Part shown: positions 1,472 to 46,792 of the stretch, piece after piece
Layout of the letters: every line of letters starts with the position of its first letter
How positions within the stretch are numbered: the stretch's first letter is position 1
NCBI GenBank assembly: GCA_038057055.1
Contig: JBBUDY010000002.1
Coordinates: 1 to 47,647 of the forward strand
Length of the DNA stretch: 47,647 nt
Reading direction: 5' to 3'
Source: Patescibacteria group bacterium
GTDB lineage: Bacteria; Patescibacteriota; Minisyncoccia; Phycocordibacterales; Phycocordibacteraceae
Notes under the pieces: generated by a model
What the model was told of the DNA's origin: nothing
Seen by the model: the letters and a program-made list of their open reading frames with translations, nothing else
The model's database searches: none
Position numbers and translations under genes: made by a program

Positions 1472-3004
1472 ATGCCTATTGCAGTGCACAAGAAAGGATA
1501 CGCAAAGACGTTTGCTGCGCAGCCGATTGGTTCAGCGGCAGAACTGGTAAGCGTCGAGGCTGATCTTACGCGCGGACTCCACGCGTTCTCTGTCGTTGGT
1601 CTCGCTGATAAAGCGGTTGGGGAGGCGCGCGACCGGGTGAGTGCGGCGATACGGCATTCCGGCATCAAGCCGCCAAAACAACAGAACAAACGCATTATCC
1701 TCTCGCTCTCGCCGGCAGACCTGAAAAAAGAAGGTTCGCATTATGACCTCGCGCTTGCGCTTGCATATCTAATTGCCGCAGATGAACTCGCTCCTTTCAC
1801 CACTGAAATGCTCTTTTCTGGAGAGCTTGCACTCGACGGCACGCTCCGGAGCGTGCGCGGAGTGCTCCCGCAGGTGCTCGCCGCGAAACGCCGCGGCATC
1901 ACCACGATTTTCATTCCACCCGGGAATGCGCGCGAGGCGCTTCTCGCTGGGGGTGTCACGGTCTATGCGCCAAAGACGCTTGCAGAGCTGTTGCAACACT
2001 TGAAGGGCGAGAAACCGCTCCCGCGCCTCGTGCGCGATCGGCAGACACCAGTGCCGCCGCCTTCGCTCGACTTGCGAGATGTAAAAGGGCAGGAGAGCGC
2101 GAAGCGCGCGCTCGAAATTGCTGCTGCAGGTCGTCACAACATCGTCTTCTACGGACCGCCGGGGACAGGGAAGACGATGCTCGCGCGAGCGCTCGCAGGC
2201 ATCCTCCCGCCGCTCACGGATGACGATATGCTCGAGGTAACTGCGATACATTCAACTGCGGGGCTGCTCAAAGAAGGAGAGGCGATGCACTGGCCGCCCT
2301 TTCGTTCGCCACACCACTCTATATCGCACGTGGCGATCGTGGGTGGTGGCGCATTCCCGAAGGCGGGCGAAGTCACGCTCGCGCACAAGGGAGTGCTTTT
2401 TCTCGATGAGTTTCCTGAATTTGATTCGCGAACACTCGAGGCACTTCGACAGCCGCTTGAAGATCGCGTGGTTACCGTTTCGCGAGCACGGGCGAGCGTC
2501 ACCTTCCCCGCTGACTGCATGATAGTTGCGGCGATGAATCCGGCGAGCACGCTCTCCGAGGATTCCCGCGTGGCGATGCGGGCGGCAGAGAAACAGTCGC
2601 GCCGTATCTCGCGGCCCATCGTTGACCGCCTCGACCTCTGGATAGAAGTGCCGCTTGTCCCGCATGACACGCTCGCGAAATTGAGTACTGGCGAGCCGTC
2701 AGAGAAGGTGCGCGAGCGTGTGGTCGCGGCGCGCGTGCGGGCCGCGAAGCGCACCGGAAAAAGAAATGCGACCAATGCCGCGCTCACCGGCCGCGAGCTT
2801 GATGAGAAAAGTGGCTTCACCACTGCGGCAAAAGAGACGCTTACACAATCTGCTGTCCGACTCAACCTTTCACCGCGCAGCTACCACCGCACGATGCGCG
2901 TCGCGCGCACCATCGCCGACCTTGCCGGTGCGGACACCGTTACCCCCGCATATGTCCACGAAGCACTCCAATACCGCCCGCGCGGCCTATTCGGGTTTGA
3001 ATAA
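1472..3004 (+). CDS. comM: ComM/YifB Mg-chelatase-like AAA+ ATPase
   Basis: [15 protein letters not shown], Walker [55 protein letters not shown]. Confidence 0.93.
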
Positions 3005-3057
3005 GTCGTCCATAAATCGTGAAAAAGGTGTTTTCCCCGACCTTTTTCACGATTATG

Positions 3058-3085
3058 TTGACAAAAGCGTTAACACGACTATACT
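3058..3085 (+). promoter_or_regulatory. sigma70-type promoter for a leaderless fic transcript
   Basis: TTGACA(3058)-16 nt-TATACT(3080), with the ATG 6 nt downstream. Confidence 0.65.
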
Positions 3086-3091
3086 GTTAGT

Positions 3092-3970
3092 ATGATAAAA
3101 ATATTATCAGTAGTTAAAAAGATTAGTACCCTCCGAGAGAGGTATTATAGAGCATTTGTTGGTAAAGAGGCACTTCTTACACTTATCTCCGAAGCTGAAA
3201 TCTCTGAGCAAGTTTACAACTCAAATGCTATTGAAAATAGTACGCTCAGTCTTGAAGAAACAGAAAAAATATTGCTCCAAATCGATCTTGACCGTTTCAT
3301 CAGCGAACGCGAGATCTTTGAAGCAAAAAACCTCGCGCGAGTTGTTTCATATATCGACAAACGTGCTAAGGAACAGGAACTCTCACTCGATGTCATACTA
3401 TTTCTGCATAAGATGCTCATTGCAAACATTCGTGATGATATTGCGGGAAGGTTTCGTAAAGAAAGAGAGTATGTGCGCGTTGGTAGCCACATCGCCCCAG
3501 CACCTCAAGAAATAATTGAACGATTAAATAAAATGCTGACTGAATATAACTCTGCAAGTCATGAGAGTATCATCAAGCGTGTCGCTCGACTACATCTCGC
3601 ATTTGAATACACCCACCCGTTTATCGATGGCAATGGGCGCATTGGACGTGTACTCAATAACTATATATTAATCCGCGAGGGGTATGTGCCCATCAACATC
3701 AAGTTTATCGACCGACAAAAATATTATGATGCTTTCACTGCATATAACAAAAACGGTGCGACCACCCTCATGGAAAAGATTGTGATAAAAGCGCTGACCA
3801 ATAGCTATTACAAGCGTCTTGCGTATCTTGAAGATAAAAAAATTGTCACTTTGAATGAATATGCAAAGAGCAACAATCTTTCACACTCCGGTCTCATCAA
3901 CAAAGCCGGTCGTCAAACAATAGAGGCTTTTCTGGAAAAGGGCGTATGGAAGATAGGACAGAACTTTTAG
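3092..3970 (+). CDS. Fic family AMPylase with N-terminal autoinhibitory motif
   Basis: Catalytic motif HPFIDGNGRIGR. SNAIEN matches the (S/T)xxxE(G/N) inhibitory motif. AT-richer than its neighbours. Confidence 0.92.
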   Translation: MIKILSVVKKISTLRERYYRAFVGKEALLTLISEAEISEQVYNSNAIENSTLSLEETEKILLQIDLDRFISEREIFEAKNLARVVSYIDKRAKEQELSLDVILFLHKMLIANIRDDIAGRFRKEREYVRVGSHIAPAPQEIIERLNKMLTEYNSASHESIIKRVARLHLAFEYTHPFIDGNGRIGRVLNNYILIREGYVPINIKFIDRQKYYDAFTAYNKNGATTLMEKIVIKALTNSYYKRLAYLEDKKIVTLNEYAKSNNLSHSGLINKAGRQTIEAFLEKGVWKIGQNF

Positions 3971-3976
3971 CTCTAA

Positions 3977-4025
3977 CCACGAAGCGCTCCAATACCGCCC
4001 CCGCGGTCTGTTCGGGTTTGAATAA
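3977..4025 (+). repeat. Second copy of the comM 3' end (direct repeat of 2956-3004)
   Basis: 45/49 nt identical. Both copies encode [15 protein letters not shown]. Confidence 0.95.
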
Positions 4026-18924: not shown

Positions 18925-18993
18925 TTGCTTTTTCTCAACTTTCGGCTATTGTATGAGGAACGCCACGGCGCTTTTTATTTTTCTAAACCTTTT

Positions 18994-21141
18994 ATGAACA
19001 GAGACTATCCGCTCGAGAAGGTTCGCAATTTTGGCATCATCGCGCACATCGACGCGGGGAAGACGACTACGTCTGAACGCATCCTTTTCTATACCGGCAG
19101 TCAACACAAGATCGGTGAGGTGCACGAGGGCGAGACCACGACCGACTGGATGGAGCAGGAGCGCGAGCGTGGTATCACCATCACCGCTGCTGCCATCACC
19201 TGTTTCTGGACCAAGACAAATGAGAAAGATAAGAAAGATACGTCCAAGAAATATCGTTTCAATATCATCGACACCCCCGGACACATCGACTTCACCGCCG
19301 AGGTGAAGCGCTCGATGCGCGTCCTTGACGGCGCGATCGTCGTCTTCGACGGCGTCGCGGGCGTCGAGCCGCAAAGCGAGACCAACTGGCGTTATGCTGA
19401 CGAAGCTGCGGTGCCGCGTGTCTGTTTCATCAACAAGCTCGATCGCACGGGTGCGTCATTTGAGAGTTCCTATGCGAGCATCCTCGATCGACTCTCACCG
19501 AAGGCAATCCGTATGCAGATTCCTATCGGTGAAGAGGGAGCACATGAGGGCTGCGTCGACCTGCTCACGATGAAGGCATATACCTTCTCGGGGAACATGG
19601 GTGAAGAGGTGATCGAGGGCGAGATCCCGGCGAATCTGCTTGAAGACGCGAAGAAATATCGTGCGGCTCTCGTTGAGCGTATCGTCGAGCAAGACGACAC
19701 AGCAATGGGCGCGTATCTCGAAGGCACGGAGCCGAGTCTCGACGAATTGAAAGCGATTTTGCGTAAGGCAGTTATCAATAATGAAATTTTCCCGGTCTAC
19801 ACCGGCTCGGCGCTCAAGAACAAAGGCGTCCAGCTCGTGCTTGATGCCGTCGTCGACTACCTCCCATCCCCGCTCGATCTCAAACCAGCTACCGGCATAA
19901 ATCCTAAGACCGGCGAGCCAATTGAACGTCATGCAGCAGACGATGAGCCATTTTGTGCGCTTGCATTCAAACTCCAGACCGACCCATTCGTGGGCGCCCT
20001 CACCTTTTTCCGCGTGTATTCAGGCACGCTCACTGCCGGCTCGTATGTCTATAATTCGAGCACTAGCACGAAGGAGCGTATCAGTCGCATTGTTCGACTT
20101 CAGGCCGACAAGCGCGAGGAGGTTGAGAAAGTATTCACCGGTGAAATTGCTGCCGCGGTCGGCCTCAAAGATACCAAGACCTCACACACGCTCTGTGACG
20201 AAGCGAATCCGATTATGCTCGAGGAGATTAAGTTCCCCGAGCCAGTGGTGAGTCTCCGCATCGAGCCTAAGACCAAAGCCGACCAGGAGAAGATGGGTAT
20301 GGCGCTCCGCAAACTCTCTGACGAAGACCCGACGTTCCGCATTAAGACCGATGATGAGACCGGCGAGACTATCATCTCTGGTATGGGTGAATTGCATTTG
20401 GAAATTCTCGTTGACCGTATGAAGCGCGAATTCAATGTACTCGCTGATGTCGGCAAGCCACAAGTGGCGTATCGCGAGACGATTCTCGGAAGTGCAGAAG
20501 CAGAAGGAAAGTACATCAAGCAGACGGGTGGTCGCGGTCAGTATGGTCACGTGAAGATCCGTATGAAAAAGATGGAGCCAGTCGACCCGGACAAGAAGGT
20601 TTCAAAGAACGTCACGCGCGAAGATCATTTCGAATTCATCAACAACATCAAGGGCGGTGTCGTCCCCCAGGAATTTATCGCGCCGGTAGAAAAGGGAATT
20701 CGCGAGGCGATGGTACGCGGCTTTCTCGCTGGCTTCCCGATGGTCGACATTTCGGTTGACCTCTACGACGGCTCGTATCACGACGTGGACTCCTCCGAAA
20801 TCGCCTTCAAGATTGCAGCGTCAATGGCGTTTCAAGAAGCCGCGGGCAAGGCAAAGGCGGTTATCCTTGAGCCGATCATGCGCATCGAGGTCATCGTGCC
20901 AGAACAGTTCATGGGTGACATCACGGGCAATATCTCCGGCAAGCGCGGACAGATCGAGGGGATGGATGAGCGCGGTTTGAGCAAAGTCGTGCGCGCTAAA
21001 GTCCCGCTCTCTGAAATGTTCGGCTACACCACCACGCTCCGCAGTATGACCGAAGGTCGCGGCTCAATGACAATGGAATTCGACCACTACGACACCGTCC
21101 CCAACAACATCGCGGTGGATATTATCGCGAGTCGCAAATAG
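18994..21141 (+). CDS. fusA: Elongation factor G
   Basis: [37 protein letters not shown]. Confidence 0.98.
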
Positions 21142-21160
21142 TTTTTACTTCAGAAAATAG

Positions 21161-21189
21161 CAACGGCGAACCTTTCGGTTCGCCGCTTG
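21161..21189. terminator. Hairpin terminator after fusA
   Basis: GGCGAACC-TTTC-GGTTCGCC. Confidence 0.7.
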
Positions 21190-21207
21190 TGCCTTGAAGG
21201 GCTCGTT

Positions 21208-21633
21208 TTACTTCTTCTTACGCCCCAACGCAACACAGAAGTGCTGTTGCGTCCATCCCGTGTTCTTCGGGAAGTGTTTAAGCGCGGTCACCGCACCGAG
21301 CTCCGAAGCGCGGGCCATCGATGGAGCAGAAACCGCGGCAGTGGAGATGTACACCTGGCGTTTTCTCACGGCGATCATACCGACGCCGTACATTGAATTG
21401 GACCGAAATCCCTTGTCTTTTCGACGCAGAGCCTCGGCCGCCTTTTCCCATGAGAGATGGTTTGTGAAATGCTCAACCCATCCATCTTCGGGAGGGAAAA
21501 CTTCTTTGGCCCGGTTGAGTGCGACAGACGCGATTTGCTGCCCGTGATTTTCCTCAACGAAAGAAACGTCAAGCTCTATCCGGCGGTTACCCTTGATTCC
21601 GTTGAAGGCAGCAATACAGACTATGTACTCCAT
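21208..21633 (-). CDS. Hypothetical protein with two internal repeats
   Basis: SD-like GAGGTGGAG. The repeats end FPPEDGWVEHF and FPKNTGWTQQHF. Confidence 0.65.
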   Translation of the reverse strand: MEYIVCIAAFNGIKGNRRIELDVSFVEENHGQQIASVALNRAKEVFPPEDGWVEHFTNHLSWEKAAEALRRKDKGFRSNSMYGVGMIAVRKRQVYISTAAVSAPSMARASELGAVTALKHFPKNTGWTQQHFCVALGRKKK

Positions 21634-21747
21634 GACTCCACCTCGCTTTCGATCATGAATCCAAATAGATCCGTCGTTTATAATACATCCTTACAAATAT
21701 TTGTCAATTTGGTGCCTGAAATAGATCGATGACTAAAGACCGAGGTA

Positions 21748-21813
21748 GAATTCGACCACCATGATACAGTGCCGAATAATATCGCGACCGACATCATCGC
21801 CTCACGGAAATAA
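21748..21813 (+). repeat. Second, recoded copy of the fusA 3' end (cf. 21076-21141)
   Basis: Encodes [21 protein letters not shown], versus [21 protein letters not shown] in fusA. Confidence 0.95.
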
Positions 21814-21830
21814 GTTCGATTACAAAAAGG

Positions 21831-21860
21831 AAAAACAGCAGACCTTTCGGTCTGCCGTTT
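21831..21860. terminator. Second fusA-type terminator
   Basis: GCAGACC-TTTC-GGTCTGC has the same loop as the 21161 hairpin, with compensatory stem changes. Confidence 0.7.
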
Positions 21861-21875
21861 CCGTTACCATGCGGG

Positions 21876-22034
21876 TTACTCCACCCACTGCAAACTGCTG
21901 TCCGGCATCTCGAGAAGTTCGAGAGGATAGTCCAACTTCGGCATATCCGATTTTGCCGATGCAGCAGACTCCAATAAGTAGGGTTCCGCGGCTTCCGTAG
22001 CGATCATTGCCAAAAGCGTTCCTATGCTGTTCAT
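21876..22034 (-). CDS. Putative 52-aa acidic small protein
   Basis: GGAGGTGA SD before the ATG; MNSIGTLLAMIATEAAEPYLL...LQWVE. Confidence 0.4.
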   Translation of the reverse strand: MNSIGTLLAMIATEAAEPYLLESAASAKSDMPKLDYPLELLEMPDSSLQWVE

Positions 22035-22038
22035 GGCG

Positions 22039-22128
22039 TCACCTCCTCTGGTATTCTACCAGATCAGTTGACTTCATTTTGTGAAGTATTATCATTGTCC
22101 CTATGTCGCACAAGCAGCAGAATCTCAT
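22039..22128 (-). CDS. Putative 29-aa Cys-containing peptide
   Basis: AAGGAGGAG SD; MRFCCLCDIGTMIILHKMKSTDLVEYQRR. Its stop overlaps the SD of the next small ORF. Confidence 0.3.
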   Translation of the reverse strand: MRFCCLCDIGTMIILHKMKSTDLVEYQRR

Positions 22129-22356
22129 TGGGCTCCTCCTTACCACCTCTGGTGGAGGATTCGCTTGCGTCTAAGTTCTAAAAAGAAATAGATACACACG
22201 AGGCCTCCCACCGGAGGCCTCGTTTATTTTGTTCCTTTGAGAGGAGGTGAGATTAGATTCAAAATGATCCTGCATGACATGATCTGTCACGCAAGGTCGT
22301 GGCCGCTATTCGCTCACAAGGCGAATCGGCGGCCGTTTTTATGGTATAATCCGTAC

Positions 22357-22785
22357 ATGATATCTTTCTCAAAAGAACATCAGGATGTCCTGCGCGCGCT
22401 CGGAGTCGAGATCGTGTATCTCTTCGGGTCGCGTACACTCGGAGCGGCACATGACGCATCTGACTATGATGTCGGTGTCGTTTTCAGAGACCCGACAGTC
22501 ATTGCTGGTCGTCAATTTGAAACCTACCAAGCGTTGTATGCCATAGTGTCTGAATATCTGCCGGATCAGCTTGGCGGTGCGCATCCTGACCTGTCACTCC
22601 TGCAATTCGCGAATGCCGCTTTGGAGATGAGTGCTATTGACGGCGTCGTTTTGTTTGAGGCGGATCCGAATTTTCGTCTAACATACGAAGAAGAGGTCAT
22701 CAAACGGTACGATGATTACCGACATCTGCGGAATATCTACGAGGAAGCAACATTTGCTTCATTCGTGCCGACTAACTATGTATAA
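22357..22785 (+). CDS. MNT nucleotidyltransferase antitoxin (MntA-like)
   Basis: YLFGSRTLGAAHDASDYDVGV fits GSx10DxD. Leaderless start after TATAAT. Confidence 0.85.
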   Translation: MISFSKEHQDVLRALGVEIVYLFGSRTLGAAHDASDYDVGVVFRDPTVIAGRQFETYQALYAIVSEYLPDQLGGAHPDLSLLQFANAALEMSAIDGVVLFEADPNFRLTYEEEVIKRYDDYRHLRNIYEEATFASFVPTNYV

Positions 22786-23254
22786 GGTACCGCTATCGAA
22801 AACGAAGATAGAATCGAAGCTCGCCCTGATTCGTGAGGCCATGTCGGTGCTGAATACCGTCGGAGAACGGTTGTCCGCGGAACAGTTTGCGAGTGATCCG
22901 AGAGAATTTGCCGTGGCTGAGCACCATCTTCGCCGCGCGCTGGAAGCTATGTTCGATATCGCAGGACATATCATCTCCCGCTTTCCGTACGCTCCGGGGA
23001 AACGGCCGAAGACGATTAAAGAAATAGCACGTGCGTTGGGTGATAAGGGTGTAGTGGATAAAGAATTCGCGGAGAATCGTCTGGTAAAGATGGCAGGATA
23101 TCGCAATCGTCTTGTACATTTCTACGATGAGATAACGCCACAAGAGCTTTACCGTATCGTTACGTGTGATATGGGCGATATAGAACAATTCGCGCGTTCT
23201 GTTATTGAAGTTGTTCAGTCGCCTTCGCGTGTCGACTTAACCGTCGAAGAGTAG
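22778..23254 (+). CDS. HEPN (DUF86/HepT-like) RNase toxin
   Basis: RNRLVHFY fits Rx4HxY. The gene overlaps the MNT gene. Confidence 0.88.
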   Translation: MYKVPLSKTKIESKLALIREAMSVLNTVGERLSAEQFASDPREFAVAEHHLRRALEAMFDIAGHIISRFPYAPGKRPKTIKEIARALGDKGVVDKEFAENRLVKMAGYRNRLVHFYDEITPQELYRIVTCDMGDIEQFARSVIEVVQSPSRVDLTVEE

Positions 23255-23619: not shown

Positions 23620-23640
23620 TTTTTTTATCCCCGCGGAGAG

Positions 23641-24997: not shown

Positions 24998-25429
24998 ATG
25001 GTTACTGCTCCTTCAAAACCAAAAGCCAAGACAATGAAGAAGACGGCGCCCAAGCGCGCGGCTTCGCCGCGCGCAAAAGCCGCGCCAAGAAAGAAAGCCG
25101 TCGCTCCCATTGTTCCCGCAGTAGAGCACAAACTCCGCATCCGCGTGAAAGCGTATGAGCACAAGATTCTCGACCTTTCGGTGAAGCAGATTATGGACAC
25201 CGCCGCACGCTTCGACGCGGTCGTCGTCGGCCCGGTCCCGCTCCCGACCGAGATTAAGCGTTGGACAGTGAACCGCTCGACCTTCGTCTACAAGGACGCA
25301 CGAGAACAGTTCGAAATGCGCGTCCACAAGCGCCTTATCGACATCCTGAACCCCTCGCCGAAGGTGATCGAGGCCCTCACCAATCTGAACCTGCCAAGTG
25401 GTGTCACGATTGATGTGAAGATGGTTTAA
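24998..25429 (+). CDS. rpsJ: 30S ribosomal protein S10 with Lys/Ala-rich N-terminal extension
   Basis: [32 protein letters not shown]. Confidence 0.96.
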
Positions 25430-25449
25430 CAAAGACGACCAAGAATATG

Positions 25450-25479
25450 AAAAATCCCCGCCATCTGGCGGGGATTTTT
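25450..25479 (+). terminator. Terminator after rpsJ
   Basis: AAAAATCCCCGCCA-TC-TGGCGGGGATTTTT. Confidence 0.8.
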
Positions 25480-25499
25480 CGTGCTACAATGCAGACATT

Positions 25500-25751
25500 A
25501 TGACTTACACGTATCGCATTATTATTGAACCAGACGAAGGCGGTTACCACGCCTATGTTCCGGCACTTTCCGGTTGTCACACCTGGGGCAAGACTATTGA
25601 TGAAGCGCGTGCTATGGTGCGCGACGCGATTGATGCGTATCTGCGAAGCCTCGTTGCCGATGGTGAAAGTGTGCCAACCGATTCAGGATTTGAACTGTTT
25701 GAAACGGTTTCTGCGCCAAAAGGAGCGCGACCAGTACTCGCACATGCCTAG
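25500..25751 (+). CDS. hicB: HicB family antitoxin
   Basis: YHAYVPALSGCHTWGKTIDEA. Confidence 0.88.
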   Translation: MTYTYRIIIEPDEGGYHAYVPALSGCHTWGKTIDEARAMVRDAIDAYLRSLVADGESVPTDSGFELFETVSAPKGARPVLAHA

Positions 25752-25968
25752 GGCTCCAAGAATCTCGGCACAAAAACTTATCCGCGTTCTGAAGAAACTT
25801 GGTTTCAACGAGCATGCTGAACGCGGAACATCGCATCTCGTTTTCTCTCACCCAGATGGCAGACGAACACTCGTCTCACGCCACCGCGGTGATATAAAAA
25901 AAGGAACGCTGGCAGGCATCCTGCGCGACCTCAAAATCTCCTCTGACGAATTCAGGAATCTACTTTAA
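25744..25968 (+). CDS. hicA: HicA family mRNA interferase toxin
   Basis: LKKLGF...GTSHLVFSHPDGR...HRGDIKKGTLAGIL. The gene overlaps hicB. Confidence 0.88.
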   Translation: MPRAPRISAQKLIRVLKKLGFNEHAERGTSHLVFSHPDGRRTLVSRHRGDIKKGTLAGILRDLKISSDEFRNLL

Positions 25969-25994
25969 TAATAGTTTAACAAGGTCGCCAAGAA

Positions 25995-26030
25995 AACACA
26001 CAACCGCCCGCAAGAGCGGTTGTGTGTTTC
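25995..26030 (+). terminator. Hairpin terminator, duplicated at 27111-27142
   Basis: AACACACAACCGCCC-GCAA-GAGCGGTTGTGTGTT. Confidence 0.75.
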
Positions 26031-26082
26031 TTAGGGATTTGTTAGTTTAGAGTTTGTTCATCTTTGTACACAGGAGGGAAAA

Positions 26083-26283
26083 GTGGCGAAAGTTAAGTAC
26101 GTTGTCGCTGGTATCAGGAATTATTTCGGCCGAGCCGGCGAACAGGGAATGATTCTTGGTGAATTCCGGAAGATAGAATTCGCACGTCGGGTGCGTGAAC
26201 AAATGCTTCAAATGGGCCGGAAGAAACAATGGTCGGGCCGCCGTGGTATTTTCCTCAACGGCAAATTTGTTGAAGAGCTTTGA
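26083..26283 (+). CDS. Hypothetical basic 66-aa protein
   Basis: SD AGGAGG before a GTG start, followed by the hairpin at 26299-26321. Confidence 0.55.
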   Translation: MAKVKYVVAGIRNYFGRAGEQGMILGEFRKIEFARRVREQMLQMGRKKQWSGRRGIFLNGKFVEEL

Positions 26284-26387
26284 CCTGTCATCCACCTAAG
26301 ACCGCGAGACTCTCGCGGTCTCGCTATTTGCATCTTTTGGAGGGGTAGAGTAGAGAAGCCAACACCGCTTTGTTATTCACATTCCAG

Positions 26388-26426
26388 TGTTCGTTAAGTC
26401 CAACGACCGTGTAGAATAACGAACAT
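26388..26426. promoter_or_regulatory. Palindromic site 1, overlapping the -10 box and start of the PaaX-like gene
   Basis: TGTTCGTTAAGTC-N12-AGAATAACGAACAT, containing TAGAAT and the start of the ATG. Confidence 0.75.
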
Positions 26427-27039
26427 GAAGAAAAGAGAACAGAAAGGGAGTGTTGAGGAGAGGGTTAGATACAGAGCAAAGCGAAATCAAATAAGAAACG
26501 CCATTTTGTTGTCGGCGTATCTTGCTATCGGTGCCGGCATGATGATCATGACACCGAACGCTGTGAGACTTCTCAAGTATGTAGAAAAAGCCATTGGACC
26601 CTCTCCTCGACTCGGGCGACGGGTGAGTCAAAAATATTCTGAATTGATCGCGCAAGGGATATTCAAACGCACTCATTCACCACGTGGACTGCGGATAGAA
26701 CTAACAGAGAAGGGGATGAAAATCGCTGAGGAGTTGAGTCAGCGTGAAGAAATACGTCCTATAAAGCAGAAGAAATGGGATCAGAAATGGCGGATCATTA
26801 TGTTTGATGTGTGGGAACGTCGTCGCAAGGTACGTGATGAGTTACGAGAGACTCTCAAAGAAATTGGTTTCGTCAAAGTCCAGAACAGCGCCTGGACTTA
26901 TCCGTATCCGTGCGAAAAGCTCCTTGTCTTTTTACGCATGCACCTCAAGCTCGGTCACGGGATCCTCTACATAGTCGCCGATGAGATAGAACATGACGAA
27001 AAACTCCGCAAGCACTTTGATCTCCCGCCACCACTATAA
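26425..27039 (+). CDS. PaaX-like protein (wHTH plus Cas2-like ferredoxin domain)
   Basis: Wing IELTEKG, then KWDQKWRIIMFDVWERRRKVRDELRETLKEIGFVKVQNSAWTYPYPC. Confidence 0.8.
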   Translation: MKKREQKGSVEERVRYRAKRNQIRNAILLSAYLAIGAGMMIMTPNAVRLLKYVEKAIGPSPRLGRRVSQKYSELIAQGIFKRTHSPRGLRIELTEKGMKIAEELSQREEIRPIKQKKWDQKWRIIMFDVWERRRKVRDELRETLKEIGFVKVQNSAWTYPYPCEKLLVFLRMHLKLGHGILYIVADEIEHDEKLRKHFDLPPPL

Positions 27040-27053
27040 TGCTGTAAGAATCG

Positions 27054-27093
27054 ATGTTCGTTAAGTCAGGCGGTCGTGGGACTTAACGAACAT
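27054..27093. repeat. Palindromic site 2, downstream of the PaaX-like gene
   Basis: Perfect 14-bp arms: ATGTTCGTTAAGTC-N12-GACTTAACGAACAT. Confidence 0.85.
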
Positions 27094-27176
27094 TGTAACA
27101 ATCACTAAATAACACACAACCGCTCGCAAGGGCGGTTTTGTGGTACAATAGTCCCATTAGTAATCTTTATTCGACT

Positions 27177-27439: not shown

Positions 27440-27468
27440 TTGCATTTCCCTGGACACTGCGGTAGAGT
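27440..27468 (+). promoter_or_regulatory. rplC promoter
   Basis: TTGCAT-17 nt-TAGAGT, followed by a structured leader. Confidence 0.55.
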
Positions 27469-27626
27469 GCCTTTAACGCTACGTACCTCCTCGGAGGGAC
27501 CTATGGCAGAACGCGCGATGCGTCTCTGCATCGCGCGTTTTGCTTAGCACCCACCAATATTTTGAAGCAAAAAATTAGGCGGGTAAGGTTTTTCTAAACC
27601 TCACTTCGCTCGGCAACAAAAACCTT

Positions 27627-28289
27627 ATGAAATTTATTCTCGCCAAGAAAGAAGGAATGACCCGTATCTATACGGAGGATGGTCGCGCTTATGCAGGAAC
27701 TATTTTGACGGCTGATCCGGTGACGGTGACCCAAGTGAAGACTACAGACGGTAAAGATAAGTATTCGGCGGTGCAGGTCGGTGTTGGCACACGGAAGGTA
27801 AAAAATATTTCTAAGGCGGTTCTTGGCCACACGAAGGGGAAGGGATACACCGACATCCGCGAAATGCGCCTGCCTGCGCAGGCAGGCGGCGCCGAAGGCG
27901 CTGCGGTCGGCGACACGATCGATGCGTCAGTGTTTGTCGTTGGTGATGTTGTGCAGGTTTCGGGTATTTCAAAGGGTAAAGGCTTTTCAGGAGTAGTGAA
28001 GCGCCACGGCTTCCACGGCGGCCCGCGTTCTCACGGCCAGAAGCACACCGAGCGTAGCCCTGGCTCTATCGGTGGCTCAGGTGGTCGCGCCGGCGGTCGT
28101 GTTGCGAAGGGGATGAAGATGGCCGGTCGTCTTGGCACTGATCGCGTAACCGTGACGAACCTTAAGGTGCTCCTCGTCGACAAGAAGGAAGGAAAGATTA
28201 TCGTCAGCGGCGCCGTGCCAGGTCGCCGCGGCACTCTGCTTGAGGTAGTCTCTGCACCCTACTTCGCTAAGGCTACGAAGGACACGTAA
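27627..28289 (+). CDS. rplC: 50S ribosomal protein L3
   Basis: SKGKGFSGVVKRHGF, RSPGSIG, GRVAKGMKMAGRLG. Confidence 0.97.
   Translation: MKFILAKKEGMTRIYTEDGRAYAGTILTADPVTVTQVKTTDGKDKYSAVQVGVGTRKVKNISKAVLGHTKGKGYTDIREMRLPAQAGGAEGAAVGDTIDASVFVVGDVVQVSGISKGKGFSGVVKRHGFHGGPRSHGQKHTERSPGSIGGSGGRAGGRVAKGMKMAGRLGTDRVTVTNLKVLLVDKKEGKIIVSGAVPGRRGTLLEVVSAPYFAKATKDT
27867..27888. repeat. Family A palindrome in frame in rplC
   Basis: CGCCTGCCTGCGCAGGCAGGCG (RLPAQAG). Confidence 0.85.
28257..28283 (+). repeat. Family B element at the rplC C-terminus
   Basis: CCCTACTTCGCTAAGGCTACGAAGGAC (PYFAKATKD). Confidence 0.85.
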
Positions 28290-29382: not shown

Positions 29383-30231
29383 ATGAAAACCTACAAACCA
29401 ACATCCAAGAGTCGCCGCCACATGACCACGCTTCCGTACAAGGAGTTGCTCTCGGGCCACGCTCCACACAAGCCTCTTCTCAAGAAGAAGAACAGTCAGG
29501 GCGGCAGAAATGCGTTCGGGCGCATCACGACACGTCACCAGGGCGGCGGGCACAAGAAGCGTTTCCGCGAAATAGATTTCTCTTATAATAAGAAAAATAT
29601 CCCGGCGAAAATTGAAACGATTGAATATGATCCATTCCGTTCGGCCTTTATCGGGCTCGCGCTCTACCGCGATGGCGAGCGCCGCTATGTGATTGTGCCG
29701 AAGGAGATGAAAGTCGGTAGCACGTTTCTTGTTTCTGAAGATGCACCGCTCACTGCGGGAAATCGTCTCCCGCTTGGGAAGATTCCTGTCGGCACCTTCA
29801 TCTACAACATCGAGCTCCAACCGGGCGCGGGCTCTGTGCTTGTCCGCTCTGCAGGAAATTATGCCGAAGTGGTCGCGCACGACGCGGGCTACGCGCAAGT
29901 AAAGCTCCCTTCGACTGAAATCCGCAAGGTGTCTGACCTCGCGTGGGCGAGTGTCGGTGCGGTGGGGAATGAAGAATACAATCTCGTCGTCATCGGCAAG
30001 GCCGGTCGCTCGCGCTGGATGGGGATCCGCCCAACCGTGCGCGGTACCGCGATGAATCCTGTCGACCACCCACACGGTGGTGGTGAAGGGAAGCAGGGTC
30101 GCGGGCTCCGCCGTGCCAAGACCAAGTGGGGCAAGCCCTCCGGCAAAGGTCAGAAGACGAGGACTCCCAAAAAATACTCCAACGTTCATATCATTACGAG
30201 ACGTAAGGTCGGGAAGAAACGTAAAGGTTAG
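29383..30231 (+). CDS. rplB: 50S ribosomal protein L2
   Basis: GRITTRHQGGGHK, EYDPFRSA, RGTAMNPVDHPHGGGEG. Confidence 0.98.
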   Translation: MKTYKPTSKSRRHMTTLPYKELLSGHAPHKPLLKKKNSQGGRNAFGRITTRHQGGGHKKRFREIDFSYNKKNIPAKIETIEYDPFRSAFIGLALYRDGERRYVIVPKEMKVGSTFLVSEDAPLTAGNRLPLGKIPVGTFIYNIELQPGAGSVLVRSAGNYAEVVAHDAGYAQVKLPSTEIRKVSDLAWASVGAVGNEEYNLVVIGKAGRSRWMGIRPTVRGTAMNPVDHPHGGGEGKQGRGLRRAKTKWGKPSGKGQKTRTPKKYSNVHIITRRKVGKKRKG

Positions 30232-30282
30232 CCGACTTGCCCCGTAGCCAACCGAGCGAAGCGAAGTTGTGGTATCGGGGAG

Positions 30283-30342
30283 AAGTACTCAAACGTCCAC
30301 ATCATCTCTCGTCGCAAGGTAGGGAAGAAACGAAAAGGCTAA
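30283..30342 (+). repeat. Second, recoded copy of the rplB 3' end (cf. 30172-30231)
   Basis: KYSNVHIISRRKVGKKRKG*, versus KYSNVHIITRRKVGKKRKG* in rplB. Confidence 0.95.
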
Positions 30343-30389
30343 GACAAATATAGAAATCGCCGTGTATAACGGCGATTTCTGTATTTGTC
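30343..30389. terminator. Long hairpin terminator inside the S10 cluster
   Basis: GACAAATATAGAAATCGCCGT-GTATA-ACGGCGATTTCTGTATTTGTC. Confidence 0.75.
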
Positions 30390-30439
30390 AAGGTTCTGGA
30401 ATGAGCTAGGAATTATGAGGGTGTTTTAGGAACGATAAC

Positions 30440-30468
30440 TTGACTCTGAAGAGTGCTTCCTGTATCTT
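30440..30468 (+). promoter_or_regulatory. Internal promoter for rpsS
   Basis: TTGACT-17 nt-TATCTT. Confidence 0.55.
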
Positions 30469-30503
30469 TGAGCTACCTCGCGTGCAGCGGGTTTTTAATT
30501 ACC

Positions 30504-30875
30504 ATGAGTCGCTCAACCAAGAAAGGACCCTTTGTGGACGTCAAACTCCTCAAGAAGGTAACCAATGCCAAACCGGCCACTGCCGGCGTGATAAATACGT
30601 GGGCGCGCAGAAGCCAGATAAGCCCAGAAATGATCGGGTTTCGATTCGGAGTTCACAATGGCAAGTCACATATCGAGGTTCTCGTGAACGAGGATATGGT
30701 CGGGCACCGTCTCGGCGAATTCTCGCCGACCAAGAAGTTCGTTCGTCACGGCGGCAAGATGCAGAAGGAGATGGAAATGAAGAAGCAGGAATCCGAGATC
30801 GCTGCCGCACAAGCGGCGAAGGCGCCAGCGGGAGCGAAGCCCGCCGGAGGCGGGTCCGCCTCCGGCGGAAAATAA
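30504..30875 (+). CDS. rpsS: 30S ribosomal protein S19 with C-terminal extension
   Basis: [29 protein letters not shown]. Confidence 0.97.
30840..30869. repeat. Tandem GC palindromes (family C) at the rpsS C-terminus
   Basis: CCCGCCGGAGGCGGG followed by TCCGCCTCCGGCGGA ([10 protein letters not shown]). Confidence 0.7.
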
Positions 30876-30878: not shown

Positions 30879-31244
30879 ATGGCAAGCGCGACACTCAAGA
30901 GCCATAATCAGCCACAACGCAAAGCGCGTCTCGTCACCGAACTTGTAAAAGGGAAGAAGGTTGCTGCGGCGCTCGCTGCGCTCCAGTTCCTCCCAAAGCG
31001 CGCGTCAGCGACGGTTGCGAAGTTGATCGCAAGTGCCGCTGCAAATGCAAAAAATCGCGGTGAAAATGTGGATGAGCTCGTCGTGAAGATTATCGTTGAG
31101 AATGCCGGCATGTTGAAGAAATATATGCCGCGCGCATTCGGCCGTGCTTCGATGATACGTCGCCGCAAGAGCCGTTTGATAGTAACGCTCGCTCCCTACT
31201 CCGCTAAAGCTACGAAGGGCAAGCCTGCGAAGAAGAGCAAATAA
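30879..31244 (+). CDS. rplV: 50S ribosomal protein L22
   Basis: RKARLV, SAAANA, PRAFGRA. Confidence 0.96.
   Translation: MASATLKSHNQPQRKARLVTELVKGKKVAAALAALQFLPKRASATVAKLIASAAANAKNRGENVDELVVKIIVENAGMLKKYMPRAFGRASMIRRRKSRLIVTLAPYSAKATKGKPAKKSK
31194..31220 (+). repeat. Family B element at the rplV C-terminus
   Basis: CCCTACTCCGCTAAAGCTACGAAGGGC (PYSAKATKG). Confidence 0.85.
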
Positions 31245-45088: not shown

Positions 45089-45286
45089 ATGAAAATCCCA
45101 CCAGACCCGCGCACCCCATATATTCTCGACAAGGAACAAGACCAACGGATTTTCGCAAAGTTGGGACGATTTCAGAAACGGAAACTTACGAGCGAAGAAG
45201 AAAAACTTGTGGCGTTTCTGTACTCTCAGCTGGAAACAGACTGGCGAACTCCGCTCGAGGAATTTACAGACGATTTACTTCGTTAA
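45089..45286 (+). CDS. Hypothetical 65-aa protein
   Basis: Leaderless start 7 nt after TATAAT; SQLETDWRTPL. Confidence 0.65.
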   Translation: MKIPPDPRTPYILDKEQDQRIFAKLGRFQKRKLTSEEEKLVAFLYSQLETDWRTPLEEFTDDLLR

Positions 45287-45324
45287 AATCTGGCTCGGGT
45301 CGGAGAGGATGATTTCGACTTTGT
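45275..45324 (-). repeat. Second copy of the PLD-OB gene 3' end
   Basis: 32/35 nt match between 45290-45324 and 45884-45918. KVEIILSDPSQILTK* versus KAEIILSDPSQLSK*. Confidence 0.9.
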
Positions 45325-45364
45325 ACACAAGCTTGCTTGCTGGATAAAAGAGGGTATAATGGCA

Positions 45365-45458
45365 ATGTGCTCGTGAAGCGCAAGCTTTATTCGGCTAACG
45401 GAATTCCATACGCCGAAAGCGGGCACATCAAAGCAACCGTCATCTCGACGGTTTTTTT
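45365..45458 (+). ncRNA. Candidate small structured RNA (three-way junction plus terminator)
   Basis: Promoter TTGCTT-16-TATAAT (45333-45360). Stems ATGTGCTCG/CGGGCACAT, TGAAGC-GCAA-GCTTTA and TTCGGC/GCCGAA. Terminator AACCGTC/GACGGTT plus T run. Confidence 0.6.
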
Positions 45459-45853
45459 GTTTTCTTATTTTCCTTTTTCCACACGCTCAAGAAGGTTATA
45501 TTTCCGTCGCCAATTCTTCTCAAGACGACCGACACTAGAGCCTTCTGTTTCCCAACCACTTCTTTCAACTCCCATATTTCGTAATACTTTCCAAGCGGTT
45601 TTGAGTACTGCTCTTTTTTGTAGTCAGCAACGCTTGTTGCCAGCTGAATAACTGGAATAACAAGCGGTAGTAGACCGATCTTATATTTCTGTTCGCTCAG
45701 TTCCCTACGCTTGCCATGACTATCGTATCGTAAATGATAGAAGCCTTTTGAATTAAAAACGACATATTGATTTAAAATCGGACAATAGACTTTCTCAACG
45801 GTTTTATACCATGCTCTTTTTTCTTCAATAAAGTTAGAAAAGCTCTGCGCCAT
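45440..45853 (-). CDS. Putative BECR/RelE-like fold RNase
   Basis: VVFNSKGFYHL...R...EQ..., C-terminal beta meander VSVVLRR.GDG..TFLSV. Fold is inferred from motif pattern. AT-rich and leaderless. Confidence 0.6.
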   Translation of the reverse strand: MAQSFSNFIEEKRAWYKTVEKVYCPILNQYVVFNSKGFYHLRYDSHGKRRELSEQKYKIGLLPLVIPVIQLATSVADYKKEQYSKPLGKYYEIWELKEVVGKQKALVSVVLRRIGDGNITFLSVWKKENKKTKKPSR

Positions 45854-45871
45854 ACAGGAGATTGTATAACG

Positions 45872-46792
45872 TTATTTCGAGAGCTGACTCGGGTCGGAGA
45901 GAATGATTTCGGCTTTGTTTTGGTAGGAGGCGATTTTGCCGGTGAGGGTGATGGTTTGCCCCGCGTAGCGGGAGAGGTCGCCGAATTTTTCTGCATCATC
46001 GGCGAAGATGACGCCAGAGAAGGGACAGGTTTTGTATTGCTTACAGAAATCGAGAAAGACCGTGCCGGTTTTTGAGGTATAGGCTTCAACGAGTTTCCCG
46101 CGCACGGAGGCGTACTCGCCGACGTGATTCATGGCTTCTGTATAGTCGATGGTGCCGATAGAAACTGGCGCGGCCGCTCCCGCGGCCGCGCTGTTGCCTT
46201 TGTAGGCATCGAGCAATTTCTTCAAAATATTTTCATATGCTTGTCGGAGTGCGGGGTCGGTGCCGACTTCAAGTATTTCGTCATTGATGGTTGTCGCAGA
46301 CTTAGTCCAGTTGTAGCTGCCAAATGCATAGGCCTGCTCTGTCACGAGAAGTTTAATGTGCATAATGCCATTGCCGGTCGCGTGTTTCTCGGTCACGACT
46401 GGGATGCCGGCGGCGAGCAATTTTGCAGTAATCGGAGCACCATAACTATTACTGCTTTGTTCTGAATCCATAATTCCTTTTACTTCGACACCACGCTTCT
46501 TTGCTTCTACAAGCGCATCGGCGATGCTCGGAAGGGTAAAGGTATATATCGCAAAATAGACGTACTCCTCTGCTTCATTGATGAGCGCGATGAGCTCTTG
46601 GTCGTTCTGCCTCTTGTCGAGGCTATAAATAACACGTATTGAGTTTGCGGTCGGCGCCGAAACGGTTTGCACCGGAATAGCGACGCTTGGGGCTTGTCCC
46701 GCCGCGTCACCAGTCCCAATCGTGTACCCCGCGCCGCCCGCTGCAAGGGCGAAGATAAGGGCTGTAATCGCACGGATGATTCTCGGATTCAT
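45872..46792 (-). CDS. Secreted PLD/Nuc-family nuclease with C-terminal OB-fold
   Basis: Signal/TM segment, AIYTFT, MHIKLLVTE..GSYNWT (HKD-like), then an OB-like VRGKLV..GTVFLDF..GQTITLTGKI..Y..KAEI. Confidence 0.8.
   Translation of the reverse strand: MNPRIIRAITALIFALAAGGAGYTIGTGDAAGQAPSVAIPVQTVSAPTANSIRVIYSLDKRQNDQELIALINEAEEYVYFAIYTFTLPSIADALVEAKKRGVEVKGIMDSEQSSNSYGAPITAKLLAAGIPVVTEKHATGNGIMHIKLLVTEQAYAFGSYNWTKSATTINDEILEVGTDPALRQAYENILKKLLDAYKGNSAAAGAAAPVSIGTIDYTEAMNHVGEYASVRGKLVEAYTSKTGTVFLDFCKQYKTCPFSGVIFADDAEKFGDLSRYAGQTITLTGKIASYQNKAEIILSDPSQLSK

Follow-up and report, generated by a model that had tools for sequence, protein, structure and literature searches.

In rhs and cdiA genes, new 3′ ends recombine in the conserved upstream region and the old end, together with its partner, is pushed downstream, giving arrays of orphan C-terminal modules. 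According to the Islander/TIGER principle, as set out in PMC4383910, integrase islands restore the gene that they target and leave a displaced fragment of it. Inserts that lack mobility genes and are bordered by direct repeats of more than 30 bp were described by the Kobayashi group as long target duplication (PMC2853133). In homology-facilitated illegitimate recombination, by the account in PMC3240628, recipient DNA of about the size of the insert is usually deleted and microhomology of 3-10 bp is used.

Here a bacterial genome is described in which conserved genes carry a diverged second copy of their last few dozen bases behind a small cassette. This scar pattern suggests gene acquisition from related species that bypasses the usual integration enzymes.

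Duplicated gene ends in the window

The window, by which the whole stretch of DNA analysed (47,647 nt) is meant, contains five host genes and the following features.

1472-3004, + strand: comM, first host gene, encoding Mg-chelatase-like ComM (Pfam Mg_chelatase, ChlI and Mg_chelatase_C)
2956-3004, + strand: comM 3′ end, copy A, in use and terminating at the stop codon
3005-3976, + strand: Fic cassette, with an inverted-repeat operator, promoter-like -35/-10 elements and the fic ORF (3092-3970)
3977-4025, + strand: comM 3′ end, copy B (orphan), 45/49 nt identical to A
18925-21141, + strand: fusA, second host gene, encoding EF-G (Pfam)
21076-21188, + strand: fusA end, copy A, made up of 66 coding nt (stop included) and a terminator-like hairpin
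21189-21747, no strand assigned: fusA cargo, with one minus-strand ORF (21208-21633, 141 aa, no known family)
21748-21860, + strand: fusA end, copy B (orphan); native spacer elements conserved in the genus follow
22237-23254, + strand: MNT/HepT toxin-antitoxin pair between the fusA orphan and tuf (Pfam Polbeta/NTP_transf_2 and HepT-like)
24998-25429, + strand: rpsJ, third host gene, encoding S10 (Pfam)
25424-25445, + strand: short repeat A, comprising the last codon, the stop and 16 non-coding nt
25446-25973, + strand: hicBA cassette, with a different hairpin, a promoter, hicB (25500-25751) and hicA (25744-25968) (Pfam)
25974-25995, + strand: short repeat B, 19/22 identical to A
25995-26026, + strand: genus-conserved hairpin behind rpsJ, copy 1
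26027-27110, + strand: second cargo, with a PaaX_M/Cas2-like ORF (26425-27039)
27111-27142, + strand: conserved hairpin, copy 2, 29/32 against copy 1
29383-30231, + strand: rplB, fourth host gene, encoding L2 (Pfam)
30172-30231, + strand: rplB end, copy A
30232-30282, + strand: 51-nt spacer without a gene, weak predicted structure
30283-30342, + strand: rplB end, copy B (orphan), with a terminator behind it; 46/60 nt and 19/20 residues identical to A
45275-45324, - strand: PLD-like gene end, copy B (orphan), which aligns with 45875-45918 at 41/50, a single 3-nt gap included
45325-45871, no strand assigned: PLD-like cargo, GC 0.41, with an ORF at 45440-45853 (- strand, 137 aa, no family)
45362-45447, + strand: small-RNA-like unit in the PLD-like cargo
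45872-45918, - strand: PLD-like gene end, copy A
45872-46792, - strand: PLD-like gene, fifth host gene (Pfam PLDc_2)

The initial annotation had described the same architecture at all five genes. This stands for four of them (comM, fusA, rplB and the PLD-like gene) but not for rpsJ, where a copied coding 3′ end had been claimed and only an essentially non-coding repeat of 22 nt is present. Its statement that the copies differ almost solely at synonymous positions was upheld for comM (4 synonymous to 0 non-synonymous, all four at third positions), for fusA (78/113 nt identical; 12:2 codon differences in the coding part) and for rplB (11:1), but not for the PLD-like gene (2:5), in which the last four codons differ.

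Pfam matches bore out the proposed identities of the Fic cargo, which PADLOC assigned to SoFic/PDC-S04, and of HicB and HicA; for the gene first read as PLD-OB they supported the PLD part, the OB domain not being confirmed. The "nuclease" proposed at the PLD-like locus gave no Pfam or PADLOC match, and the supposed 51-nt hairpin behind rplB folds no better than shuffles (z -1.29). For the fusA cargo ORF there was no Pfam or PADLOC match, no DNA match to the cargo in 100 genus genomes and no relative in the genome_contigs collection. The MNT/HepT cargo has no tail duplication of its own.

The GC content of the Fic cassette is 0.40, against 0.61 for comM. Its left end is conserved in three other genomes, where the cassette stands in other contexts, and in two other genomes the cassette lacks the tail repeat. 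Behind rpsJ, contigs of four runs jump from 25392 to 25986, omitting the hicBA cassette, and in genome G077 a related hicBA cassette lies at the same locus between duplicated hairpins. The hairpin duplication in the window is separate from the 22-nt repeat and brackets the second cargo, whose ORF is flanked by two 39-nt palindromes (26388-26426 and 27055-27093); the same PaaX_M/Cas2-like cargo is found between duplicated hairpins in G023.

Native genus-conserved elements stand behind the B copies of fusA and rpsJ, and a Tyr-to-His change in fusA copy B was found in none of the fusA tails of 29 relatives. This indicates that copy B is the resident end.

Frequency and selection across the genome

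The host is a very small groundwater bacterium. Its 0.81-Mb genome is a 69-contig metagenome draft, 86% complete, with co-occurring relatives.

The recurrence first noted in the window reaches far beyond it: about 18 conserved host genes in the genome have such a second copy. They are strongly conserved, encoding ribosomal proteins, EF-G, EF-P, RecA, enolase and RNases. The cargo measures 0.04-2.5 kb, with a single exception of 5.4 kb. Spacers of 51 and 37 nt occur in this genome and comparably short ones in G010, G023 and G017; as 37-51 nt is too small for an element, cargo is not required by the process.

With one pipeline for all genomes, 15 of 537 genes were positive here; a closed genome of the same genus yielded 6 of 672, and there were no positives among 332 genes of a genome of the same order or among 614 of E. 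coli K-12. The pattern is thus far more frequent than in E. coli, but the wider group does not share it as a general feature. Matches to the last 16 amino acids (at least 10 of 16, within 3 kb downstream) were found on the same strand for 20 of 766 called genes and on the opposite strand for none, and gene tails were positive in 18 of 537 cases against 4 of 537 for mid-gene segments. The frequency of tail duplication exceeds chance. A scan extended to 3-30 kb downstream added one orphan, the cargo interval of which does not overlap recombinase matches. Mirror-image orphan 5′ ends were seen for serS, comEC and two other genes.

Orphans of fusA are present in 8 of 58 genus genomes, some of them in series. 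Their starts vary by species (-66 to -201 nt), with differing cargos, and five start within a few codons of one another. The fusA repeat of G070 is perfect (90/90); the pair in G010 shows 14 synonymous and 2 non-synonymous differences.

Median repeat length is 54 nt and median identity 78.5%. Similarity mostly breaks off at the stop codon or only a few bases away, and in the 5′ cases it begins at most 15 nt from the start codon, as expected for orthologous ends with diverged non-coding flanks. Pooling of 18 pairs gave 115 synonymous and 41 non-synonymous codon differences, a count biased towards synonymous differences because most pairs were detected by protein similarity, and 139 of 192 nucleotide differences fell at third positions. 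In three pairs found purely at the DNA level, 22 of 29 differences were at third codon positions (binomial p 3e-6). The RNase Y and EF-P pairs showed ratios of 12:0 and 7:0. As the differences are mainly synonymous, both ends were formerly working gene ends, each selected in its lineage as first proposed. This mark of purifying selection on both copies is not what a decaying simple target-site duplication could leave, and the exclusion of that origin for the diverged pairs holds.

Third-position GC is alike in the two tails (A 0.649, B 0.656; GC/AT swaps 52 vs 54) and the cargo is AT-richer (mean 0.46), so copy A has the look of a gene end from the chromosome of a similar genome. Neither tail correlated with the gene body in a crude test that has no power. 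Within pairs, the median of the longest identical run is 13 nt, and only 3 of 18 pairs have a run of at least 20 nt, making crossing over inside the repeats unlikely. Near-identical pairs also occur, in G066 (50/51) and at an M50 peptidase gene (49/51).

Origin of the second copies

The reading we favour, to which we give an even chance, is that the gene end is replaced by DNA of a related lineage, anchored by homology and without a dedicated integrase. The DNA of a relative would bring the end of the same conserved gene and what followed it, a small cassette or a short spacer. The first join would form by homology inside the gene; the second, non-homologous or using very short homology, would probably lie some tens of bases upstream of the resident stop codon or, in the mirror cases, downstream of the resident start codon. 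Incoming copy A would complete the gene and resident copy B would be displaced behind the cargo, dead and slowly decaying, and repeated events at one gene would give a series of orphans.

Two working ends are favoured since neutral decay of one copy cannot give the 115:41 excess, and host genes so strongly conserved keep usable homology between species. The interspecies variation in orphan starts and cargos at fusA and the 5′ mirror cases were counted for end replacement. Counted against it were the G070 repeat, equally expected from duplication in situ, and the recombinase and transposase-like genes described below. A search with the fusA cargo in the 100 genus genomes and the genome_contigs collection found no donor arrangement. 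Survivorship may explain why diverged pairs dominate: pairs from close kin, being near-identical, would probably be lost fast by recombination between the copies, and pairs from distant kin (about 78% identical), unable to recombine, would persist.

Entry would presumably be by natural transformation, and homology-facilitated illegitimate recombination, as first proposed, may be the route. ComM is encoded, as annotated, together with ComEC, DprA and RecA, and natural competence is described for Saccharibacteria, another CPR lineage (PMC10187176).

The main alternative, conceivable although rather unlikely, is that site-specific integrative elements, which bring their own copy of the gene end and displace the resident one, have left the cassettes as relics or satellites, the small cargo being a remnant after loss of the integrase and most genes or a cassette moved in trans. 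Integrase-borne islands show precisely this architecture, and an element-borne end, also selected for the right residues, would explain the synonymous differences. The cargo ORFs (toxin-antitoxin pairs, Fic, Cas2-like and unknown genes) are rich in toxin-antitoxin genes, and such pairs resist loss; serial orphans look like tandem accretion at att sites, and the clustered starts of five fusA orphans fit too. Outside the window, the 0.81 Mb encode six large serine recombinases, which make a trans-acting enzyme conceivable, as well as a tyrosine recombinase and several transposase-like genes. However, none of the six lies inside a tail-repeat pair and the 3-30 kb scan did not bring one in. When 32 cargo ORFs, 12 of them from the window and 20 from other loci, were run against Pfam, no recombinase family was matched; a further cargo (contig C22) does overlap with a Y1-transposase-like match. 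Eight recombinase and transposase families searched genome-wide had no match on the window's contig, in agreement with the initial annotation. Some 18 target genes would demand many specificities. The cargo ends share no motif and no k-mer above shuffled expectation, and some spacers are only 37-51 nt long. Copy A is host-like and not cargo-like in GC3, the Fic cassette occurs in two genomes without the repeat, and no viral contig carries a comM or rplB tail.

In long target duplication, a target stretch of about 20-250 bp would come to flank the insert on either side upon its entry, the repeats being identical at first and diverging later. Such repeats sometimes overlap the 3′ end of a gene, mostly in naturally competent species among those treated in PMC2853133, and the near-identical pairs (G070 fusA, G066, the M50 peptidase) and the hicBA hairpins of G077 are as it predicts. 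In most pairs, however, identity is about 78% and nearly all differences are synonymous, whereas about three quarters of the changes should alter the protein had B been dead from the start. A rescue would need a swap to a foreign allele that kept the cargo, with a crossover inside a 50-nt repeat, and we consider this origin improbable.

We are still more doubtful of a Campbell-type single crossover of a small circle carrying a gene-end segment and cargo, whether a plasmid or a molecule released from another genome when its own A and B copies recombined. This is the experimental source of gene-end duplications of 109-950 bp in E. coli in PMC3240628, it would allow a self-sustaining cycle like that proposed for restriction-modification units in PMC2853133, and the near-identical pairs are compatible with it. 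The crossover must lie inside the repeat, though, and 15 of 18 pairs lack a 20-nt identical run, so it cannot directly have made the diverged pairs.

That an assembler put two strain variants of one gene end in series, as a fragmented metagenome draft with co-occurring relatives might invite, can practically be dismissed, and for the fusA, rpsJ and rplB junctions is effectively refuted, since independently built contigs of run X4, whose sample differs from three flagged as possible sources, bridge all three with 0 differences (21075-23310, 25346-26819 and 30115-30775), a contig of run X7 bridges that of fusA (21016-22219), the closed one-contig genus genome has orphan tails too and the fusA architecture recurs in 8/58 genus genomes.

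Comparison with known systems

In E. coli, the pipeline recovered icd/e14 (165 nt, 93% identical, 15 kb apart), and also a 5′ case near 1.41 Mb. Like the loci described here, e14 at icd combines a replaced gene end, cargo and a displaced resident end, with copies that differ mostly synonymously. Its 15 kb compares with cargo of 0.04-2.5 kb (one of 5.4 kb) here. The loci further differ from integrase islands in that the scanned cargo contains no integrase, its ends have no common site, and about 18 targets, some nearly cargo-free, are found in 0.81 Mb.

The inserts of integrons are likewise small, often promoter-less or toxin-antitoxin cassettes in series at a fixed place, but here no intI-type gene lies near any site, no attC-like element marks the cargo ends and there are many landing sites. 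The description of gene ends as integron-like landing pads goes beyond the data, the cargo ends having no common site and 5′ ends being affected too. The alternative ends of rhs and cdiA encode different toxins, whereas both ends here encode the same housekeeping tail.

In long target duplication, too, an insert without a mobility gene lies between repeats that are tens to hundreds of bp long, but the repeats given in PMC2853133 are near-identical both mutually and to the empty target (for example 44/46 or 417/423) and the cargo is restriction-modification, against toxin-antitoxin, Fic and unknown genes here. The median identity of 78.5% and the selection signature point to two lineages rather than one duplicated target. 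Homology-facilitated illegitimate recombination likewise combines one homologous anchor with one illegitimate join, placing foreign DNA beside the conserved anchor; it requires competence and RecA, and this genome encodes both. In the cases of PMC3240628 recipient DNA is usually deleted, whereas here it is duplicated.

Paired gene ends in the window

The window is the whole of contig C2 in a 69-contig, 0.81-Mb draft genome (G000) with 52% GC and contains comM, the str/S10/spc ribosomal-protein cluster and a PLD-like gene. The S5 gene directly adjoins that of L15, the L30 gene being absent between them; a missing L30 is typical of the candidate phyla radiation (CPR). DNA of the window is present in groundwater and aquifer runs from six studies.

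In the initial annotation five genes (comM, fusA, rpsJ, rplB and the PLD-like gene) were each described as followed by a cargo and then by a diverged duplicate of their own 3' end. The end in use is called copy A here and the orphan end behind the cargo copy B. A frame-blind repeat search of the window returned three gene-end pairs and one hairpin duplication.

Pairs returned by the repeat search (window positions)
2956-3004 and 3977-4025: comM pair, 92% identical
30172-30230 and 30283-30341: rplB pair, 78% identical
45884-45918 and 45290-45324: pair of the PLD-like gene, 91% identical
25995-26026 and 27111-27142: hairpin pair behind rpsJ

The fusA pair has diverged beyond the reach of this search; at the protein level it agrees in 15/16 residues, and its local alignment (78/113 nt) extends through the terminator. 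At rpsJ the repeat is of 22 nt only (the last codon, the stop codon and 16 non-coding bases) and flanks hicBA on both sides. The proposed architecture thus stands for comM, fusA, rplB and the PLD-like gene but not for rpsJ, where the repeat is mostly non-coding. A second cargo at the rpsJ locus, with a PaaX_M/Cas2-like gene, lies between the two hairpin copies. The rplB spacer, previously read as a 51-nt hairpin, folds no better than shuffled sequence (z -1.29).

Differences between the copies had been said to be almost entirely synonymous. This was found for comM, in which 4/4 differences are synonymous third positions, for fusA (12 synonymous and 2 non-synonymous codons) and for rplB (11 and 1), but not for the PLD-like gene (2 and 5).

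The hairpin trailing rpsJ (window about 25990-26032 and 27111-27142, AACACACAACCGCC...GGTTGTGTG) is conserved across the genus, at 80-97% in many species, and is a segment repeatedly duplicated around inserted cassettes, in G000 and in the same-genus genomes G023 and G077.

The assembly was checked for chimeras against contigs from other metagenome sequencing runs. Contigs from run X4, which was independently assembled from a sample distinct from the three flagged as possible sources, match the window at 21075-23310, 25346-26819 and 30115-30775 with 0 differences and cross the fusA, rpsJ and rplB junctions, and a contig from a further run, X7, spans 21016-22219; at these three loci the repeats are no assembly artefact. 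The comM and PLD junctions lie outside this comparison, and uncovered parts and joints with short sides were left out of the evidence. Contigs in 4/4 runs compared skip from 25392 to 25986, which is the hicBA cassette, and in one X4 contig 25445 is joined to 27627, an arrangement that would put rpsJ beside rplC. Both joints are short-sided and may belong to other organisms, and they are taken only as a hint of empty arrangements. A search for a close empty allele, with a pattern built on the orphan end of fusA plus flanking sequence, gave 0 stretches in one metagenome contig scan, from which records very near the window may be omitted.

L3 and L22 have a similar C-terminal tail (APY.AKATK), which derives from a 31-nt repeat at 28254-28284 and 31191-31221. 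As 44 nt at 31192-31237 are replaced in contigs of two runs, the L22 copy of this tail varies between organisms.

Orphan ends across the genome and the genus

The last 16 residues of each called gene were searched against the 3 kb downstream, with the opposite strand as control. In G000, 20/766 genes gave a same-strand match of at least 10/16, compared with 0 for the opposite strand; among 537 longer genes there were matches for 18 tails as against 4 mid-gene segments. A stricter pipeline, which drops matches where more than 30% of the protein repeats, was then applied to four genomes.

Genes with an orphan tail at most 3 kb downstream
G000: 15/537
G017, closed genome of the same genus, 800 of 993 kb scanned: 6/672
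G025, same order but another family, 400 kb scanned: 0/332
E. coli K-12, 0.8-1.6 Mb: 0/614

The excess in G000 is significant by Fisher's exact test (p 1e-5 vs. E. coli, 8e-4 vs. G025), so the pattern is more frequent than in the non-CPR genome, and it is enriched in this genus. As a positive control, the E. coli scan at a 30-kb range finds icd/e14. In a scan for large elements 3-30 kb downstream only one extra case was found.

Eleven of these 15 genes proved on inspection to have clean orphans (comM, fusA, enolase, RNase Y, a class II tRNA synthetase, an M50 peptidase, RNase R, RmuC, RecA, EF-P and PilB). Of the remaining 4, one is the tail motif common to L3/L22, one a paralogue of PilB, one an ORF lying within the cargo of RmuC and one a weak match. 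Whole-protein tblastn served to separate tandem paralogues from orphans. Paralogy or ambiguity kept the following out of the clean count: pilins, LamG-type 'LYN' tails (C22 and C44), cases on contigs C14 and C64, and the L3/L22 tail. The 537-gene set does not include seven further clean cases, namely rplB, the PLD-like gene, L28, a release factor, RNase III, S18 and, with a cargo of 5.4 kb, an Rnf-like gene. With about 18 host genes in G000, identified by Pfam, the observation made in the window is real, and wider and stronger than originally described. Enolase, the M50 peptidase and RmuC are each followed by two serial orphans, and one G017 gene by three.

Mirror cases were also found, with orphan 5' ends upstream of four genes.

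Orphan 5' ends
serS: -15 to +45, 51/60, 1.1 kb away
comEC: -4 to +62, 54/66
gene on contig C17: 55/62
hsdR: 33/42

To survey the genus for fusA, the C-terminal 199 residues of EF-G were searched against its genomes. The gene was found in 58/61 genomes, and in 8 of these, with G000 among them, a second, partial match follows closely downstream within the same contig. The left edges of the orphans vary from -66 to -201 nt in six species, five genus matches clustering within a few codons, and identity to the working end of the same genome is 69-100%, the G070 repeat being perfect (90/90). The cargos vary by species (a membrane protein, a 341-residue protein, a ParE-type pair, an MNT/HepT-like pair), the ParE-type pair being common to G070 and G066. 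G010 and G023 have a further, older fusA orphan behind the first. Orphans of rplB on the same contig were seen in 2/61 genomes; for comM, 20 genomes gave a match and 2 of these have an orphan.

At loci L043, L050, L058, L062 and L063 in genus genomes a common sequence (CTACCGGTA.TCCGG.TT.AGGAT...) occurs shortly past the rplB terminator; it resembles the terminus of a shared gene on the reverse strand, inserted between rplB and rpsS without any orphan tail.

Several non-coding elements were also noted. A 27-nt palindrome stands directly before the orphan RNase III end in G000 (C50, 34773-34799) and the orphan fusA end in G010 (C11, 7181-7207), and at a third site in G002 (C20, 10689-10715). 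It was dropped as a signature site, since it occurs once each in only 3/101 genus genomes. An element of about 85 nt just 5' of rplC (window 27462-27545) is 73-92% identical in more than 20 genus genomes, with 100% over a 45-nt partial match in G009, is more conserved than the neighbouring coding DNA and gave zero Rfam matches; it may be a ribosomal-protein leader. Two non-coding blocks between fusA and tuf are conserved across the genus as well, 23621-23791 in about 40 genomes at up to 96% identity and 22098-22237 in 6 at about 75-82%.

Cargo genes and cassettes

The comM cargo is a Fic gene by Pfam and also matches the PADLOC SoFic/PDC-S04 models. The rpsJ cargo encodes HicB and HicA, and an MNT/HepT pair is found farther along, in the fusA-tuf interval. 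Three cargo ORFs of the window were assigned no family by Pfam or PADLOC.

The left end of the Fic cassette, with operator and promoter, is sharply conserved, and its location varies among genomes. In G024 the cassette is behind comM, with an orphan, and in G017 it is at another location. In G009 (locus L004; C1, 1397-1471 and the cassette behind) its start directly abuts the tRNA-Arg gene at the CCA end, and behind it come a 94-aa ORF and then a tRNA-Phe gene; no repeat, and in particular no repeated tRNA fragment, was found there. A related hicBA cassette in G077 occupies the same rpsJ locus, bracketed by a different duplicated segment. For the fusA cargo, 39 pattern matches turned up when genome contigs were scanned for a donor, and 0 of them were confirmed; 0 viral contigs had the comM-tail or rplB-tail pattern expected of gene-end mimics.

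The PaaX_M/Cas2-like family has seven diverged proteins in G000, encoded in the window at 26388-27093 and on C10, C13, C17, C50 (two copies) and C62; the others are 33-44% identical to the window copy. The window gene lies between two 39-nt palindromes, with its start codon inside the first. Three of the genes are in cargos adjoining orphan ends, and with seven paralogues in the genome and only 3 cargos these proteins were rejected as a general catalyst.

The cargo of the PLD-like gene contains a small-RNA-like unit:
45362-45447 (+): promoter-like TATAAT, 86-nt stretch, terminator-like hairpin and T run

The 86-nt stretch folds at z -2.99 and had zero Rfam matches; an Rfam scan of the whole window gave 0 matches at the gathering score.

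Origin of the pairs and comparison with known systems

Pair statistics were obtained for 18 G000 pairs. These have a median length of 54 nt, identity of 78.5% and longest identical run of 13 nt, with 3 pairs reaching 20 nt, and only 3/18 exceed 88% identity. Repeat lengths are 37-113 nt in G000 and up to 251 nt in G047. In most pairs the similarity ends at the stop codon or a few bases off, and at their left edge the repeats share an identical run of 2-12 nt. Between the copies 115 codons differ synonymously and 41 non-synonymously, a synonymous count that is inflated because most pairs were found by protein similarity; in the three pairs found by DNA, 22/29 differences are at third positions (p 3e-6). 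Over all pairs 139/192 nucleotide differences (72%) are at third positions and all base types occur among them; a diversity-generating retroelement, which would confine changes to template adenines at first and second codon positions, was rejected, as the differences are synonymous, concentrated at third positions and not adenine-specific. The RNase Y pair has 12 synonymous and 0 non-synonymous differences, and neutral decay of one copy therefore cannot be the source of such pairs.

Genus-conserved native sequence lies 3' of copy B at fusA and rpsJ, and fusA copy B has one change found in 0/29 relatives. GC3 is equal in the A and B tails and the cargo is AT-richer. Similarity to relatives, which are about 80% identical, had no power to tell which copy is native or whether a donor tract runs on from the insert into the anchor gene. 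Neither the 18 left nor the 18 right ends of the cargos share a 5-7-mer more often than shuffled sequences would.

These data are best fitted by replacement of the working end of a conserved gene by a gene end, with trailing DNA, from a related lineage. The incoming end, with whatever lay behind it, would take over the gene and the resident end would be displaced. Replacement of this kind accounts for the signature of selection, the edge of similarity at the stop codon, the native flanks of copy B and the host-like composition of copy A, and also for the very short spacers, the mirror cases at 5' ends, the varying edges and the choice of strongly conserved host genes. Crossover inside the repeats is unlikely, because the pairs are only about 78% identical. 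The genes for DNA uptake and recombination that such replacement requires (ComEC, DprA, ComM and RecA) are present in G000. The recombination interpretation of the initial annotation is plausible and unproven.

The main rival is a classical integrase model, with the enzymes lost or acting in trans, which covers the architecture and the synonymous pattern equally well. In agreement with the initial statement that no integrase is present in the window, eight recombinase/transposase families searched genome-wide gave zero matches on the window contig. Among 32 cargo ORFs scanned against Pfam, 0 had a recombinase domain; RusA in the RmuC cargo was the sole recombination-related domain found in cargo, and the ambiguous C22 cargo overlaps a Y1-transposase-like match. 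Elsewhere the 0.81-Mb genome has six large serine recombinases (C63, C25, C51, two on C41, and C17; open frames of 453-555 aa), 0/6 of them between paired tail repeats, together with a single tyrosine recombinase match (PF00589) on a 1.1-kb contig one IS110-type gene, and four Y1-type, one rve and one DDE_Tnp_1 match; a genome-wide search for a TnpB-type gene gave no match. As G000 is 86% complete, further recombinases may exist. Were the pairs integrase-driven, about 18 targets in 0.81 Mb with tiny integrase-less cargos would suggest an unusual satellite-like mobilome in the genus. In-situ long target duplication fits the near-identical pairs, and those only.

We tentatively propose, at somewhat less than an even chance of being right, that in this genus of tiny groundwater bacteria homology in the ends of conserved genes anchors the capture of short accessory cassettes from sister species, with no site-specific recombinase involved. 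Each capture would rewrite the last or first few dozen bases of an essential gene and leave the resident end as a datable fossil, so that successive gene transfers could be read from arrays of orphan ends. Accessory genes in integrase-poor, naturally competent, minimal genomes would then turn over by a general route independent of enzymes. Recombination, if correct, would offer a mechanism by which to approach 'insertion with long target duplication', for long without an explanation, and orphan ends with synonymous-only differences would be a simple sequence signature by which interspecies transfers in uncultured lineages could be counted and dated. It would also explain the continued exchange of defence and toxin-antitoxin genes in ultra-small, integrase-poor bacteria. 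It would likewise explain why ribosomal-protein and elongation-factor loci of groundwater Patescibacteria score as horizontally acquired, as stated in one study (PMC12455944).

No description of the orphan-end pattern in CPR bacteria was found in the limited collection of literature searched. The comparison with integron landing pads is not supported: an integron has intI, attI and attC, whereas here no intI is near the sites, PF00589 occurs only on the separate 1.1-kb contig and the cargo ends are without a common element. Homology-facilitated illegitimate recombination, the original papers on which are said to concern Acinetobacter, needs competence and RecA, for which the genes are present here, but typically deletes recipient DNA at the illegitimate join, whereas here it is duplicated. 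One source attributes deletions to this process and gene-end duplications to the single crossover of circles (PMC3240628).

Integrative elements that regenerate their target have an integrase within the element and a common core at the ends, whereas 0/32 scanned cargo ORFs here matched a recombinase, a Y1-like match lying in the C22 cargo, and no k-mer is common to the cargo ends. Such elements would also enter a given gene at one crossover position; the fusA orphan starts spread over -66 to -201 nt, with five of the genus matches close together. Insertion with long target duplication, first reported, it is said, in H. pylori, shares with the present pairs direct repeats of more than 30 bp (37-113 nt here) and an insert without mobility genes; its repeats are near-identical to each other and to the single-copy target, a feature seen here only in cases like the 90/90 repeat of G070, the median being 78.5%. 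The pattern is filed beside two known kinds, the regenerated target with displaced fragment and insertion with long target duplication.
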